DNA from: an uncultured virus (IMG/VR IMGVR_UViG_3300047547_000492)
Lineage: Duplodnaviria; Heunggongvirae; Uroviricota; Caudoviricetes
Length of the DNA: 64,000 bases
IMG/VR virus record: IMGVR_UViG_3300047547_000492
Reading direction: 5' to 3' (one strand)
Position numbers and translations under genes: made by a program
Notes under the pieces: model-generated
The model's database searches: none
Told to the model about the DNA's origin: nothing
Seen by the model: the letters and a program-made list of their open reading frames with translations, nothing else
Shown: piece after piece, positions 58,758-64,000 of the stretch
How positions within the stretch are numbered: position 1 is the first letter of the stretch
How the letters are laid out: each line of letters starts with the position of its first letter

Positions 58758-59494
58758 GGATGTCCGCTCAGGTCAGTCGGGCCGTAGGACTCGGGGTCGT
58801 TCATGCACGCCACCAGGATGGACTTGTACTTCTTGATGTATGCCCTCCACGGCATACGTTCGGCCGGCGCGTGGACCATGACGGCGTGGCGCTGCTCCGG
58901 CGTGGGGTCGGTCGGCGGGACGAACTCCGGCATCCAGCTCGGCCTCGGTCTCTCCGGCCGGTCCCAGCCTAGTCTGCCGAGGAGACCGGTCGGCATCTGA
59001 CCGCATCTGAGGCCGGCCATCTTGGCCAGGACCATGCGCCTGGCCATCTCGAGCTCCGCCTTGTGGTACTGGGCCCTGTAGGTAGACACCGGATCGCCTG
59101 GGATCTTGCATCGGTTGTGGGTCAGCTGGGGGATCTCCAGCGTAGACCCGGGCTCGAGGGGGGCGAGCCCGGTCGGAGCGTTGTCAAGCGCCCACCACAT
59201 CAGCCGTTCGGACGGGTAGACCTTCATGAATCTGAACCTCCTCTCGACCACGGTCGCCCTGCAGTGATCCACCATCCACTCCCACGCCTCTGAGGAGGAC
59301 AGGACCCACTGAACCAGCGTAGATCCGGCCCACGCGGCGTTGATCGGACACCCCTCAGCCCCGGCGTGGGCCGCGGCATTCGTCAGCACGAGGCTCAACA
59401 CCATGCCCTGGCGCCAGACGTGCATGTCGGCCAGGTACTTGGCTGACGTCCTGTGGTCATCATCGAGCATCCAAAGATCCAACCCGTCGCTCAT
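58754..59494 (-). CDS. Pyrimidine-dimer DNA glycosylase (DenV-like) family protein
   Basis: LWMLDDDHRTSAKYLADMHV and GDPVSTYRAQY. Confidence 0.6.
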   Translation of the reverse strand: MSDGLDLWMLDDDHRTSAKYLADMHVWRQGMVLSLVLTNAAAHAGAEGCPINAAWAGSTLVQWVLSSSEAWEWMVDHCRATVVERRFRFMKVYPSERLMWWALDNAPTGLAPLEPGSTLEIPQLTHNRCKIPGDPVSTYRAQYHKAELEMARRMVLAKMAGLRCGQMPTGLLGRLGWDRPERPRPSWMPEFVPPTDPTPEQRHAVMVHAPAERMPWRAYIKKYKSILVACMNDPESYGPTDLSGHP

Positions 59495-59586
59495 CTTGTG
59501 TCTCCGGGCGCCTGACCACCTGAGGCCAGACGTTCAACACAGGATAACCCGGCCGGCGCGTCGGTGACACAGACCGCATGATCGTG

Positions 59587-59762
59587 GGGCCCGTTTGAGC
59601 GCCGATCAGCCGAGTCTGGGCCCGTTTGAGCGCCGATCAGCCGAGTCTGGGCCCGTTTGAGCGCCGATCAGCCGAGTCTGGGCCCGTTTGAGCGCCGATC
59701 AGCCGAGTCTGGGCCCGTTTGAGCGCCGATCAGCCGAGTCTGGGCCCGTTTGAGCGCCGATC
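59587..59762. repeat. 31-bp tandem repeat GGGCCCGTTTGAGCGCCGATCAGCCGAGTCT, 5 full copies plus a partial
   Basis: Direct reading; non-coding; no spacers. Confidence 0.97.
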
Positions 59763-59826
59763 GTCAAAAAATTTTGAAAAAGTGGGTCGAAGCGCGCGCC
59801 GATCGTCAAAAAATTTTGAAAAAGTG
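59754..59826. repeat. Duplicated AT-rich element GCGCCGATCGTCAAAAAATTTTGAAAAAGTG
   Basis: Two copies 42 bp apart. Confidence 0.93.
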
Positions 59827-59867
59827 CGCTCATTTCATCGGATATTCCCCTCTGACAAGGAGATCCG

Positions 59868-59975
59868 CAGGATCTTCGATAATCTGAGCAATGCGTAATT
59901 CGGGGATCCTCAGGATCTTCGATAATCTGAGCAATGCGTAATTCGGGGATCCTCAGGATCTTCGATAATCTGAGC
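59868..59975. repeat. 43-bp tandem repeat CAGGATCTTCGATAATCTGAGCAATGCGTAATTCGGGGATCCT, 2.5 copies
   Basis: Direct reading. Confidence 0.95.
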
Positions 59976-60364
59976 GGGTGGTTTGGGGCGAGAGGCGGGG
60001 GGCCACGGTCACGGAGCCGAGCCCCCCGGCACTGCGTTCTCTGAAATCCCGATACCGATTCGTCAGCGGCACACTAGGTGCCTGGTCCGCGACCCCCTTA
60101 ACCGAGGGGTCCATCCGACCGAACGCCGAATTTACGTGGTACGCTTAATTGCGTGGCGTAAACTAGCGTCGAGTTACACGGGGTGGACAGGTGGGGTTGG
60201 GCAGTAGCGACCTTGTATCACAACCTAATCGCTGACGACGATATCGTGCGCATAGTGGGCCAACGAAGGGGTACGAGCTTCCATCGCGCGGAGCGATCAG
60301 GCGACGACTACCGGACCGTTGGACAACCCACGACTGACCATGGGTAGACCGCCTGACAAGCGTC

Positions 60365-60453
60365 TATCCAATGGTTCAGCATGCCGCGCCTACGCTACGG
60401 CCCTTAGGAACATCGGCTCACCTCGTAGGCGCGGCATCCTCAACCATTGGATA
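60365..60453 (+). promoter_or_regulatory. 30-bp imperfect inverted repeat (long RNA hairpin) abutting an RBS
   Basis: TATCCAATGGTT-cagc-ATGCCGCGCCTACG pairs with CGTAGGCGCGGCAT-cctc-AACCATTGGATA. Confidence 0.8.
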
Positions 60454-60464
60454 AGGAGTGCATC

Positions 60465-60608
60465 ATGTTCGCCACCGTCTTCATCACCTGGGCCGCCGGC
60501 GTGGCCCTCGTCCCCGCAGCCCTGACCTACCGGAGCCGTAAGGCTGTCGAGCAGAAGGACCTCCAGACGAACTTCGATCGAGTCATGAACCAGACCGCCA
60601 ACAAGTGA
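60465..60608 (+). CDS. 47-aa single-TM protein
   Basis: TAAGGAG RBS; MFATVFITWAAGVALVPAALTYRSRK... Confidence 0.65.
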   Translation: MFATVFITWAAGVALVPAALTYRSRKAVEQKDLQTNFDRVMNQTANK

Positions 60609-60609
60609 G

Positions 60610-60858
60610 GTGAGCGTGAGAGGGTACATCGGTAAGATCCTAAAGAACGGCGAGGAGGAGTCGTTCAAAGTTATCGACTTCACCGCGGATGAGGTCAACG
60701 GCACCACGGAGGTGTTCGTAAGAGCGGTGTCCCACGACAGAGCCGTGTGGCTGTGGTGGGACACCTTCGAGGGCGACTTCCGCCTCTGCGATGCAGACGG
60801 AGAGGTCGTACCAACCGATCGGGGTGGCTTCTCCATCCGAGATACCGAGAGGGGTTAG
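60610..60858 (+). CDS. Small early hypothetical protein
   Basis: GAGGTGA RBS; its stop codon lies inside ribozyme-like element 1. Confidence 0.65.
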   Translation: MSVRGYIGKILKNGEEESFKVIDFTADEVNGTTEVFVRAVSHDRAVWLWWDTFEGDFRLCDADGEVVPTDRGGFSIRDTERG

Positions 60859-60890
60859 GCTCGGTGCGGCGGCCTCCGGGCCGCGTCCCC
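60844..60890 (+). ncRNA. Pistol-like self-cleaving ribozyme candidate, copy 1
   Basis: ACCGAG-A-GGGG-TTAGG-CTCGGT-GCG-[GCGGCC tccg GGCCGC]-GT-CCCC. Confidence 0.7.
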
Positions 60891-60907
60891 ACAGCGAGAG
60901 GTGTTTC

Positions 60908-61084
60908 ATGCGCGTTGTCATCCGCCACAGGATCTCCAACGGCGTCCACGACGGCTTCGAGGCCCTTCTGATCGACGGATGGGTCTCGAAACACTCCATC
61001 AGCGGCCCATCGCTCGAGAGGGTCGTCACGCAGGTCTCAACGATGTGGTCGGGGTACCCCGTGTACAACGACCTGCTCGGGTAG
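60908..61084 (+). CDS. Small early hypothetical protein (58 aa)
   Basis: GAGAGGTG RBS before ATG 60908. Confidence 0.6.
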   Translation: MRVVIRHRISNGVHDGFEALLIDGWVSKHSISGPSLERVVTQVSTMWSGYPVYNDLLG

Positions 61085-61151
61085 TTACACGCGCGGGCCC
61101 GAGGGTTACACGCGGTGCCCGCGGATCAGCGATGCAGAATATGATCTAGGA

Positions 61152-61205
61152 GCCGGGAGGGGTTAGGCCCGGTGCGGCTCGAGGACCAGTCCTCGAAGCG
61201 TCCCC
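61152..61205 (+). ncRNA. Pistol-like self-cleaving ribozyme candidate, copy 2
   Basis: GCCGGG-A-GGGG-TTAGG-CCCGGT-GCG-[GCTCGAGGA ccag TCCTCGAaGC]-GT-CCCC. Confidence 0.7.
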
Positions 61206-61227
61206 AACAACACGACAGGAGTCCACA

Positions 61228-61794
61228 ATGGCCAAGACCATCGACACGATCGCCACCGCCGCCCTCTTCGCCTCGTTCAAGCCCGAGGCGCTCGCGGAGG
61301 AGCTCGCGGCCCGCAAGCTGAAGCCCGTCGAGGACGTCGGCACCGCGAGCATGCTCCTCGCGAGCGGATGTAGGAGCCTCGACGACGTCACCACGACCGT
61401 CATCAACCTCTCGCACGGCCAGGTGTCCGGCAAGGACATGACCGACATGCTGGCGAAGTGCTTCCCGAACCATCAGATCGGGGACAGGCACGGTCCGCAC
61501 TACCTCAGCCTCGTGCGGACCGGCGACTCGGGCAGCAAGATCGAGTGCCGCTTCCGCGTGGCCAAGCGTCAGCGGGTCGCCAAGACCGAGCCTGAGGCGA
61601 AGGTCGTCGAGGTCGAGCGGACCTACGACCTCAGCTCGCTGGACCCGAAGCACCTCGACAGGATCGTGAAGGCCGTCAAGGGGACGCCCCTCGAGAACCT
61701 GATCGCCAAGTGCCTCGAGACCAAGGTCGAGCCGAAGCTCGAGCCCGAGGTCAAGGTTCATGACCAGGAGGAAGCCGCTCCGGCCGCCAAGTAG
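61228..61794 (+). CDS. Early hypothetical protein sharing the RHGPHYLS domain with 8422-9084
   Basis: CAGGAG RBS; strongly GC3-biased codons. Confidence 0.8.
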   Translation: MAKTIDTIATAALFASFKPEALAEELAARKLKPVEDVGTASMLLASGCRSLDDVTTTVINLSHGQVSGKDMTDMLAKCFPNHQIGDRHGPHYLSLVRTGDSGSKIECRFRVAKRQRVAKTEPEAKVVEVERTYDLSSLDPKHLDRIVKAVKGTPLENLIAKCLETKVEPKLEPEVKVHDQEEAAPAAK

Positions 61795-61804
61795 CCGAGT
61801 GACG

Positions 61805-61852
61805 ACCGGGAGGGGTTAGGCCCGGTGCGGCGGTCCGACGGACCGCGTCCCC
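61805..61852 (+). ncRNA. Pistol-like self-cleaving ribozyme candidate, copy 3
   Basis: ACCGGG-A-GGGG-TTAGG-CCCGGT-GCG-[GCGGTCC gac GGACCGC]-GT-CCCC. Confidence 0.7.
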
Positions 61853-61868
61853 AATCGAGAGGTGTTCA

Positions 61869-62318
61869 ATGAACGATGATGCGGTCCACCCGTTGATCGC
61901 TCTGGCCGTCCGTCTCATGGTCCAGGACGAGTCACAACGAGTAGAATGCGGTCTGATCAACGCTCCGTCGGAGTGCGTCGCGATCATCTCGAAGGCCAAC
62001 GCCATGGAGATGGCCGAGGCCGTGGCGACGAGCGACGAAGACTTCCAGAAGCTCGCCAAACTCGCCGGCGACGAGACGATCTCCGCCCTGATCGACGCGG
62101 AGAGAGCGCGCAGTCCGTTCCTGGACGATGCCGACACGTTCGACATGGACGAGCCCTGGCCCTCGGACCTCGCGGATCCCGAGCCGCTCTGGTCGATGCT
62201 CACGACCTGGGTGCACCACTGCGAGCTGGTCAAGGAGCTCGACGACTCGAGGATGGCCAATGCTGACCGCGGACCGAGGTTCGCCGAGTACATGAAGAGC
62301 GCCCCACTCGTCGACTGA
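61869..62318 (+). CDS. Acidic early hypothetical protein
   Basis: GAGAGGTG RBS; 149 aa, D/E-rich. Confidence 0.75.
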   Translation: MNDDAVHPLIALAVRLMVQDESQRVECGLINAPSECVAIISKANAMEMAEAVATSDEDFQKLAKLAGDETISALIDAERARSPFLDDADTFDMDEPWPSDLADPEPLWSMLTTWVHHCELVKELDDSRMANADRGPRFAEYMKSAPLVD

Positions 62319-62343
62319 ACCGCCAACCCTAGGAGACACGCCG

Positions 62344-62517
62344 ATGGCCGTCGGAGAGAGCAAGAACGCAGGATTCGCGAAGGAGTGTGCGTCGGGATCC
62401 CGCTCCCGACGGTTCGGCAAGAGAGCGAGGACGAGGTCGTTCCGCAGGGAGACGATCCCCGACGACGAGCTCGAATGCGCGGCGTTCGACGACGTCACGA
62501 CGACCGGGAGGGGTTAG
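62344..62517 (+). CDS. Small hypothetical protein (57 aa)
   Basis: AGGAGA RBS; MAVGESKNAG...; TAG stop lies inside element 4. Confidence 0.55.
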   Translation: MAVGESKNAGFAKECASGSRSRRFGKRARTRSFRRETIPDDELECAAFDDVTTTGRG

Positions 62518-62550
62518 GCCCGGTGCGGCTCCCGTCGAGGGAGCGTCCCC
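62503..62550 (+). ncRNA. Pistol-like self-cleaving ribozyme candidate, copy 4
   Basis: ACCGGG-A-GGGG-TTAGG-CCCGGT-GCG-[GCTCCC gtcga GGGAGC]-GT-CCCC. Confidence 0.7.
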
Positions 62551-62568
62551 AACAACGAGAGGTGTTCA

Positions 62569-62943
62569 ATGCCCAAGGTGGACCTCAACGAGATCGCCAG
62601 GGTCTGCTACGAGAACGATCAGGGGGTCGCCTACGCCTACGGCGATCACGCCTGGCCGGCGGGATGCCCGACGGGCACCGACGCGCTCAAGCTCATCGAC
62701 GAGAAGGTGCGGTTCATGGGGTTCGAGCCGGACCACCTCAGGTCGGACGTGTGGAATGCGAAGGAACACTGCCTCCGTCTGATGTCGTATCCGAGGCCCG
62801 CGGTCAAGGTGCCCGACGGCAAGACCTTCGAGGAATGGGCCGATGACGTCGTCTCGGGGAAGGCCGGCGTGTCCGACGGGTGTCTGGCAAGCAGCCTCGA
62901 CGAGTTCGTCAAGCTGAACGAGCGACTCAAACGTTCCGAGTGA
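62569..62943 (+). CDS. Early hypothetical protein
   Basis: GAGAGGTG RBS; 124 aa. Confidence 0.75.
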   Translation: MPKVDLNEIARVCYENDQGVAYAYGDHAWPAGCPTGTDALKLIDEKVRFMGFEPDHLRSDVWNAKEHCLRLMSYPRPAVKVPDGKTFEEWADDVVSGKAGVSDGCLASSLDEFVKLNERLKRSE

Positions 62944-62989
62944 CTCGGAGGGGTTAGGCCGAGTGCGGCGGTCGAGAGGCCGCGTCCCC
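62943..62989 (+). ncRNA. Pistol-like self-cleaving ribozyme candidate, copy 5
   Basis: ACTCGG-A-GGGG-TTAGG-CCGAGT-GCG-[GCGGTC gaga GGCCGC]-GT-CCCC. Confidence 0.7.
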
Positions 62990-63007
62990 AACAACGAGAG
63001 GTGTCAA

Positions 63008-63361
63008 ATGTCGAGTGTGAAGTCGGCCGTTCAGGCCGCGATCGATCATCTGCGTGGCCGCGGCGTCGGGATCCCCGAAGACATGATCGATGACGCCGTC
63101 AACGTGGCCGAGGAGGTCGAGTCCGACGCAAACGAGGACGCCTGGGACGCCTGGGATCCCGACGAAGACCCGATGTACGCGGGCGATGGAACGTGGTTCG
63201 CTCAGGAGGACTCGGCCCTCCGCGCCTCCGGACCGGGCAACCCCCGGAACCTGCCCTGCCCGACCTGCCGCGAGCCCAACCGCCTGACCCCGGCCGACCG
63301 CGCCAGGGGCTACCAGTGCGACAGCTGCGCGGACAAGGTCGAGCGCGGGTGGATGGAATGA
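63008..63361 (+). CDS. Early protein with acidic middle and C-terminal Zn finger
   Basis: GAGAGGTG RBS; CPTC...CDSC. Confidence 0.75.
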   Translation: MSSVKSAVQAAIDHLRGRGVGIPEDMIDDAVNVAEEVESDANEDAWDAWDPDEDPMYAGDGTWFAQEDSALRASGPGNPRNLPCPTCREPNRLTPADRARGYQCDSCADKVERGWME

Positions 63362-64000
63362 GCCCCGAGACGAAACAGTGGGTCCGGGACGTGGCCTACG
63401 CAGCGTGCTCGGACCTCGAGAGGATGGACAAGGGCGTCGCGTTCGGGCGCACGTCCTGGAGCGTCGCCATCAACACCCGATGGCCGGCCGATGCGCCCAC
63501 CAAGTTCGTGGAGCGCCAACAGATTGTGTTCGACACCCTCAACGAGCTGTACGCTGAGAGCGCGTTCGTCACGTTCCAGGACGGCACCGTGATGACGAAA
63601 TTCGCCCTGAGTCGGATCCCCCGGGTCCCGCGCCTCAACTCCAGGCGCGGTCAGGCCGTCCGACTCGTCGCCTGGCTGATGCACCACGGCGGGCCGATGG
63701 CCCGGCACGAGGTCGTGCGCGCCGCGCTCAGGCGAGGGGCGCACCTCGGGTCCTCCAGTCGCCCCTCGCACGCGTGGTTGCTGTCGTGGTCCGGCGGCCT
63801 GAAGGGTGACGGGAGGCTGTGGGTCGGGAAGCGCATCCAGACCATCCGGCACGCCGACGGGACGTGCCGGGTGCGGTTCGGCTACCAGCTGTTCTTCCCC
63901 GGACCAAAGATCGAGCTGGCACTGAACGACGGGTTCGTTCCCGACGATCGAGACCACGCCCAGCTCGAGAAACTCATCGTCGACAACGCTCACCTGCTCG
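63358..64000 (+). CDS. Partial hypothetical protein (runs off the window)
   Basis: ATGA-coupled start; frame open to the end of the window. Confidence 0.6.
   Translation, partial: MSPETKQWVRDVAYAACSDLERMDKGVAFGRTSWSVAINTRWPADAPTKFVERQQIVFDTLNELYAESAFVTFQDGTVMTKFALSRIPRVPRLNSRRGQAVRLVAWLMHHGGPMARHEVVRAALRRGAHLGSSSRPSHAWLLSWSGGLKGDGRLWVGKRIQTIRHADGTCRVRFGYQLFFPGPKIELALNDGFVPDDRDHAQLEKLIVDNAHLL

Follow-up and report, generated by a model that had tools for sequence, protein, structure and literature searches.

Candidate P1-less pistol ribozymes in the small-gene arrays of an uncultured freshwater phage and of related phages

Results

The window analysed here is a stretch of 64,000 nt from an uncultured freshwater phage (IMG/VR record IMGVR_UViG_3300047547_000492; G+C content of ~61%), in which an array of nine small open reading frames (ORFs) on the + strand is punctuated by five copies of a short element. 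The copies were 47–54 nt long, all of them on the + (coding) strand and within 2.2 kb, and they appeared at five of the eight junctions of the array (Table 1). A common layout was found in all five, which reads 5′ to 3′ as N6 / A / GGGG / UUAGG / N6′ / GCG / P3 hairpin / GU / CCCC, where N6 pairs with N6′ and GGGG with CCCC (P2). An earlier note, made from the sequence alone, had described these elements as pistol-like ribozyme candidates lacking the stem P1, and all five were present on the + strand where it had placed them and with the layout it had given. The four N6/N6′ combinations that it quoted (ACCGAG/CTCGGT, GCCGGG/CCCGGT, ACCGGG/CCCGGT and ACTCGG/CCGAGT) were read correctly, and the G-U pairs and GAGA loop that it mentioned were both seen in the hairpin of copy 5, and copy 2 has a further G·U pair where N6 begins.

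The pattern AGGGGTTAGG-N6-GCG gave five exact matches in the window and one unrelated match with two mismatches; in shuffled sequences, with up to two mismatches allowed, the mean was 1.01 matches and none of 100 shuffles reached six. Moreover, a covariance model (R1) was made from 35 copies, including those of the window, and the window was searched with filters off. The five copies scored 52.9–67.1 bits, a match that follows from the construction of the model; what counts is that no other site in the 64 kb came close (12.3 bits for the next best one). Single-sequence folding energies were no better than those of shuffles (z from −0.44 to +0.17), and the minimum-free-energy fold contained the N6/N6′ hairpin and P3 in four of the five copies, copy 1 folding otherwise. 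The support for these elements is covariation and not stability.

Table 1. Coordinates of the element copies and of the small-gene array (5′ part: N6; linker; P2 5′ strand; UUAGG; N6′; GCG. 3′ part: P3; GU; P2 3′ strand, CCCC). Pistol scores refer to Rfam RF02679 and R1 scores to the covariance model of this work
Feature	Position	Strand	5′ part	3′ part	Predicted cut	Pistol (bits)	R1 (bits)
Copy 1	60844-60890	+	60844-49; 60850; 60851-54; 60855-59; 60860-65; 60866-68	60869-84; 60885-86; 60887-90	G60885/U60886	21.2 (model positions 23-68)	65.3
Copy 2	61152-61205	+	61152-57; 61158; 61159-62; 61163-67; 61168-73; 61174-76	61177-99 (23 nt, one internal mismatch); 61200-01; 61202-05	61200/61201	18.1	52.9
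Copy 3	61805-61852	+	61805-10; 61811; 61812-15; 61816-20; 61821-26; 61827-29	61830-46; 61847-48; 61849-52	61847/61848	22.1	66.2
Copy 4	62503-62550	+	62503-08; 62509; 62510-13; 62514-18; 62519-24; 62525-27	62528-44; 62545-46; 62547-50	62545/62546	24.2	63.8
Copy 5	62943-62989	+	62943-48; 62949; 62950-53; 62954-58; 62959-64; 62965-67	62968-83 (GAGA loop, one U·G pair); 62984-85; 62986-89	62984/62985	17.5	67.1
Array of nine small ORFs, punctuated by element copies	60465-63999	+
ORF	60465-60608	+
ORF	60610-60858	+
ORF	60908-61084	+
ORF	61228-61794	+
ORF	61869-62318	+
ORF	62344-62517	+
ORF	62569-62943	+
ORF	63008-63361	+
ORF	63358 to past window end	+

The comparison with Rfam that the earlier note had proposed found no family, and hence no canonical ribozyme, at gathering thresholds in the whole window. 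When positions 60000-64000 were scanned by E-value, all five copies matched the Pistol family (RF02679) over positions 23-68 of its 68-position model; all displayed pairs were standard, and the scores were 17.5–24.2 bits against a gathering cut-off of 34.5 bits, while no other ribozyme family of Rfam (hammerhead, twister, hatchet and the rest) matched the elements at E-values up to 10. The aligned part of the model comprised the last A of the linker, P2, UUAgG, the pseudoknot strand, GCG, P3, GU and P2′, that is, the strand order and conserved letters which the earlier note had laid out. The unaligned positions 1-22 hold the P1 hairpin (acUC, loop GUCuggGC, GAgu) and the linker AUAAAuA. A P1 hairpin is impossible in the window copies because a single base separates N6 from P2, leaving no room for the 3′ strand of P1. 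Regarding the proposal that P1 and the A-rich linker are replaced by a single A, the length of 1 nt held in every parsed relative but one (in which it is 0 or 1), but the identity of the base did not extend beyond the window, A, U or G being found in the relatives.

The absence of P1 was also examined in five related contigs, where 12 of 16 Pistol matches began at model positions 22-24. Two others spanned positions 1-68 by means of an unrelated upstream hairpin, the loop of which is unable to pair with N6′, and the remaining two were weak (13.1 and 9.2 bits) and lay away from the copies. At two loci, L162 (1501-1567, − strand) and L163 (1501-1572, + strand), scores of 32.9 and 29.1 bits were obtained over the full Pistol model. 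These near-threshold scores arise because the unrelated upstream hairpin is aligned as P1, whereas it is the adjacent N6 that can pair with N6′, and matches of this kind could pass wrongly for canonical pistols. The strands follow one another as in canonical pistols (pseudoknot 5′, P2 5′, pseudoknot 3′, P2 3′), so the knot topology appears to be kept, and the change seems confined to the link that joins pseudoknot 5′ to P2 5′, which is 1 nt long in place of ~12 nt with a helix. Overall, the elements keep the pistol core but fail three current features of the family, namely P1, the linker and the Rfam score.

Relatives were collected by pooling a strict-pattern scan of IMG/VR contigs with a looser earlier scan and the window itself, and further pattern scans and a whole-record model search added variant copies. 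A total of 41 distinct sequences matched the strict pattern, the five of the window included, 35 of which (30 outside the window) formed six of six N6/N6′ pairs. The script also found a closed P3 hairpin in 34 of these 35; in the remaining one (L142) it had cut P3 at an internal GTCCCC, and the hairpin was read by eye and extended by 7 nt in the alignment. The other six sequences are taken as chance matches since they had three N6 pairs at most and no closed P3 hairpin. The relatives were located on 20 viral contigs and on one 9-kb contig binned with a metagenome-assembled genome of Crocinitomicaceae, often with two to six per contig on a single strand and 0.3–1.6 kb apart. The G+C content of their flanks ranged from 37% to 72%, for which reason the hosts of the related phages are probably diverse. 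On the other hand, the strict pattern found at least 121 loci in 596 Gb of cellular genomes, and among the matches listed the N6 pairing was chance-like (4, 24, 36, 36, 12, 6 and 5 loci with 0, 1, 2, 3, 4, 5 and 6 pairs, respectively), with only two real copies, both on the Crocinitomicaceae contig. Two variants carried UUAAG in place of UUAGG. One was L311 (1501-1552; G014:C1:52855-52906), whose P2 reads as AGGG/CCCU with a 1-nt linker or as GAGGG/CCCUC without a linker and whose P3 begins with U as in the Rfam consensus, and the other was a copy in L316 with GGGG/CCCC.

Compensatory changes were assessed in an alignment (A1) of 35 rows, each chosen for full N6 pairing. Standard pairs filled 99.5% of the cells, in contrast to 37.6–53.8% when the partners were slid by one to three columns, and none of 500 shuffles reached the observed covariation score. 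All six N6/N6′ pairs were formed in 35 of 35 rows, with compensatory changes at four of the six, a support which is inflated by the choice of rows; the evidence free of this selection is the clean split among the 41 pattern matches between sequences with six pairs and those with three or fewer. P3 was not selected for, and it showed compensatory changes at all six counted pairs, with 98.6% of its cells paired. Moreover, the first N6 pair was G·U in 16 rows, A-U in 15 and G-C in four, and since a G·U pair is an A·C mismatch on the other strand, this fits RNA of the coding strand only. P2 was invariant in A1, the search pattern having fixed it, and when it was left free the variants GGGA/UCCC, AGGG/CCCU and GGGG/CCCU (with G·U) appeared. 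In particular, a scan for the compensated form AGGG...GT-CCCT gave three real copies in five loci, against none in five for the uncompensated AGGG...GT-CCCC. Taken together, the compensatory changes in N6/N6′, P3 and P2 support the pseudoknot closed by GGGG/CCCC that the earlier note had put forward.

The letters of the core were compared with the functional residues of canonical pistols, numbered as in env25, with U30 and A31 added from the consensus letters of Rfam. Two studies (PMC6154101, PMC6795133) attribute a function to U29 (paired with the U 3′ of the cut), the G33-C41 pair, the general base G40, G42 and the fixed length of the GU junction, and they report the need for a purine at position 32, the mutant A32G being active and A32C dead. 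U29, the purine at 32, G33-C41, G40, G42 and the GU step were kept in all five window copies, in which the GU junction was exactly 2 nt; this comparison spans the residues just named rather than the full list of ten pistol residues conserved at >97%. The sole variation seen in the core was G or A at position 32, with A in two relatives, which accords with the published purine rule and with the activity of A32G. Furthermore, when the loop and GCG were left free (RCTCGG-N-GGGG-N5-CCGAGT), 13 matches were obtained, ten of which had the exact UUAGG, GCG, P3 and GU-CCCC, the other three being unrelated sequence. GU and CCCC had been left free in the first scan and were present in 30 of 30 kept rows (at least five N6 pairs; some rows are duplicates from overlapping loci).

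Regarding their placement, the window copies started at or just past the end of an ORF and finished 21–27 nt short of the following ATG, GAGAGG or AGGAG lying in the interval. In copy 1, UUAGG contains the stop codon of ORF 60610-60858 (TAG, 60856-58), and in copy 4 it contains that of ORF 62344-62517 (TAG, 62515-17); in copy 5 the TGA of ORF 62569-62943 overlaps N6 by one base. The same setting was found among 42 distinct copies, a count from which window copy 2 was left out for its P3 mismatch. Of those, 40 were flanked by the end of one ORF (at least 40 codons) and by the start codon of another, preceded by a Shine-Dalgarno sequence, compared to 13.5% of 594 random positions on the same strand of the same loci, and in 35 the stop codon fell between −6 and +12 nt relative to where N6 starts (13.8% of the random positions). 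The stop of the upstream ORF was a UAG or UAA inside the loop in ten copies, while in the remaining 32 the upstream ORF ended elsewhere, 27 times ahead of the element and five times within N6.

A near-identical leader (CCCC, AA(CAAC), GAGAGG, TGT(T)CAA, ATG) followed copies 3–5 at 61849-61871, 62547-62571 and 62986-63010, so that the repeated unit is the putative ribozyme together with the ribosome site, and the arms of P3 differ yet remain paired. In relatives (L124, L127, L135, L140, L148, L152, L158, L190 and others), a second conserved hairpin (e.g. ...GACAC-NGT-GTC...) was observed between CCCC and the ribosome site, often followed by a stretch containing GTGAGAC. This hairpin is absent from the window, and it would form the 5′ end of the released message.

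Known ribozymes were searched at Rfam gathering thresholds in 20 related loci (81 kb). L132 carried a Twister-P5 (2471-2552, − strand, 47.8 bits) ~0.4 kb from its copy and sharing its strand, and two type II hammerheads (528-602 and 2881-2965, − strand, 39.6 and 39.1 bits) flanked the copy of L142, also on the same strand. Thus, at distances of ~0.4 to 1.4 kb from the copies, known self-cleaving ribozymes fill equivalent slots in the same gene arrays. Association with known ribozymes was the original route to the discovery of pistol (PMC4604425).

In the remainder of the window, genes for DNA polymerase, helicase, ligase, ribonucleotide reductase, thymidylate synthase and terminase were located on the + strand from 244 to 37806, followed on the − strand by virion genes, including tail sheath and tape measure, from 38193 to 59494. 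A gap of ~970 nt separates the latter from the array, which begins at 60465. PHROG and Pfam searches of the nine array ORFs gave no family above the cut-off, and from its layout alone the array may be an early region. No sigma-70-like promoter and no intrinsic terminator (hairpin plus T run) was predicted in 59400-64000, where these two consensus types were the ones scanned; this fits a single long transcript of the array, without proving it. Neither did blastn of 60000-64000 against GenBank phages give any match, and copy 5 alone gave one 18-nt chance match (E = 4). G001 (43 kb), the closest record, is without the array region and has only an unrelated site with one mismatch. A look for RNA runs covering 60400-63400 returned none. 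Three sequencing runs compared at the array showed no variants and no joints. Public assembly contigs of the runs containing this phage are interrupted or overlap precisely at copies 3 and 4 (61801-61831 and 62500-62528), as is expected because they are short repeats in the assembly graph, and this calls for caution when such repeat arrays are assembled.

Two further features were observed near the array. A long near-perfect inverted repeat at 60353-60452 (stem of ~23–27 bp, loop of ~29 nt) ends 13 nt 5′ of the ATG of the first small gene (60465), beside an AAGGAG ribosome site; in Rfam it drew nothing but spurious mir-4659 matches, on the + and the − strand alike, at 27 bits where the cut-off is 92. 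At the head of the array, it could act as a leader structure, as an RNase III-type site or as an operator. The motif GTTACACG occurs three times in the window, always on the + strand and within 1 kb (60173-60180, 61084-61091 and 61105-61112), two of the copies being 21 nt apart just 5′ of element copy 2. The mean in shuffled sequences was 0.75, with three occurrences reached in 6 of 100 shuffles. GTTACACG may be a phage-specific promoter or a regulator site, in which case an internal start would precede copy 2.

Discussion

The architecture described above, its covariation, the conserved letters of the core and the position of the elements between genes are shared by many phages. On this basis, we consider it probable that the elements are a variant of the pistol ribozyme without P1, which would cleave itself at the G/U step and thereby process the transcript of the small genes. 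In canonical pistols, a 6-bp helix joins the loop of P1 to the P2-P3 junction; here this helix would be made by a free 5′ strand, N6, located one nucleotide 5′ of P2, P1 and the A-rich linker being absent. The remainder would be a standard pistol core, with a 4-bp P2, UUAGG, GCG, a variable P3 and the two-nucleotide GU junction. Cleavage would proceed by internal transesterification, the 2′-OH of G attacking, so that the upstream message would end in the folded ribozyme with a 2′,3′-cyclic phosphate and the downstream one would start with 5′-OH-UCCCC followed by a leader of 21–27 nt with its ribosome-binding site (RBS), the 4-bp P2 presumably being released after the cut. The five copies would in this way split a single small-gene transcript, itself predicted, into separate messages. 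We infer in this manner the catalysis, the cut site, the chemistry of the ends and any effect on RNA stability or translation.

Several points weigh against this proposal. A canonical pistol mutant with P1 disrupted lost much of its activity, and P1 was called 'very important' (Harris et al. 2015, PMC4604425), so that the loss of P1 could abolish catalysis in these elements. A conceivable answer is that the tether of 1 nt makes N6/N6′ a hairpin-like helix for which P1 might no longer be required. The canonical consensus linker AUAAAuA is also absent, a single nucleotide standing in its place, and the Pistol scores lie 10–17 bits under the Rfam gathering score. Moreover, most relatives were found by patterns that fix the core, by which conservation is partly built in, and the scans with a free core lift this only in part. 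Finally, a ribosome terminating at the internal UAG of copies 1 and 4 would unfold N6 and P2.

The strongest rival is a pseudoknot without catalysis, descended from the pistol fold or convergent on it, that would serve as structural punctuation without cutting itself. We regard it as unlikely, although it is the rival that deserves most weight, and so are the roles it could play, such as a protector of the 3′ end, a block for ribosomes or exonucleases, or a site where a phage or host protein or an RNase binds. The loss of P1, the disruption of which reduces canonical activity (PMC4604425), and the scores under the Rfam cut-off speak in its favour, and a stable GC-rich P3 with a pseudoknot at gene ends could indeed protect RNA. 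However, it leaves unexplained why U29, a purine at 32, G33, G40, C41, G42 and a GU of 2 nt are invariant amid helices that covary, an invariance that holds across flanks of 37% to 72% G+C, as well as why position 32 admits only A or G and why a twister and hammerheads share the strand of the copies in two relatives.

More doubtful still is a view in which the elements are active ribozymes of ~47 nt within a translation-coupled cassette. The UAG in the loop would be the upstream stop codon, at which a ribosome would unfold N6 and P2, and the extent of upstream translation would decide whether and when the cut is made and the next cistron released.

A transcription signal before each gene, whether a phage promoter, an intrinsic terminator or an antitermination RNA, is very improbable. 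The element does repeat just 5′ of genes and P3 is a GC-rich hairpin, but P3 is followed by GUCCCC and not by a run of U, neither of the two signal types scanned was predicted around the array, the covariation includes G·U pairs that exist in RNA of this strand only, and the specific match is to the core of pistol. Hardly credible is a repeat that acts purely at the DNA level, for instance as a protein operator, a recombination site or a small mobile repeat. In its favour are the five near-identical cores within 2.2 kb and the breaks of assemblies at them, but the helices are kept by compensatory changes as the sequence varies, with G·U pairs that would be A·C on the other strand, and all copies lie on the coding strand between a stop codon and an RBS. 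A pseudoknot stimulating stop-codon readthrough or frameshifting at the UAG of UUAGG has equally little to recommend it: the upstream ORF ends at a UAG or UAA in the element in two of the five window copies and ten of 42 overall, but it ends elsewhere in the other 32, the stop sits inside the fold and not 5′ of it, and each copy has its own RBS and start codon on its 3′ side.

Protein-dependent processing between cistrons is known for early phage mRNA, as at the RNase III sites of T7 and with RegB of T4. The process proposed here is similar in that a polycistronic early transcript would be cut between cistrons near RBSs, but the RNA itself would be the nuclease, with no host or phage protein required. 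The founding paper of the pistol class is reportedly that of Weinberg et al. in 2015, and both the class and the presence of pistols beside phage genes are already known. With canonical pistols (RF02679; PMC4604425), the elements share the strand order, the 6-bp pseudoknot helix, the 4-bp P2, the G-C pair closing the pseudoknot strand, the two-nucleotide cleavage junction and the setting in phage DNA. They differ in lacking P1 and the 7-nt A-rich linker, replaced by a single unconserved nucleotide, in having the 5′ pseudoknot strand free instead of in a hairpin loop, in a P2 that is nearly always GGGG/CCCC, and in a length of 47–54 nt against a model of 68 positions, with scores under the family cut-off. 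Another close known system is the hammerhead, including its minimal forms devoid of the loop-loop contact. Pistol has been likened to the hammerhead for the three-way junction of its active site, a guanine as general base and a stabilising distal tertiary contact (PMC6795133). Unlike a hammerhead, the elements match no hammerhead family at E-values up to 10. The core letters of the hammerhead are, to our knowledge, absent from them as well.

A full-text literature search, outside which most subscription journals and supplementary alignments fell, found no natural pistol without P1 and no minimal one. Pistol ribozymes are defined by three stems. If the proposal is true, a natural and widespread form lacking P1 would mean that this stem is dispensable in nature and that the minimal fold of the class has to be redrawn, and it would offer a smaller self-cleaving module for RNA engineering; the current Rfam model would also miss a whole branch of the class. 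The role of self-cleaving ribozymes in bacteria and phages is described as still open in a review (PMC6765202). In this regard, five copies lying from stop codon to RBS in what would be a single operon, with ~40 relatives placed alike, would give these ribozymes a testable job, the gene-by-gene cutting of a polycistronic phage message.

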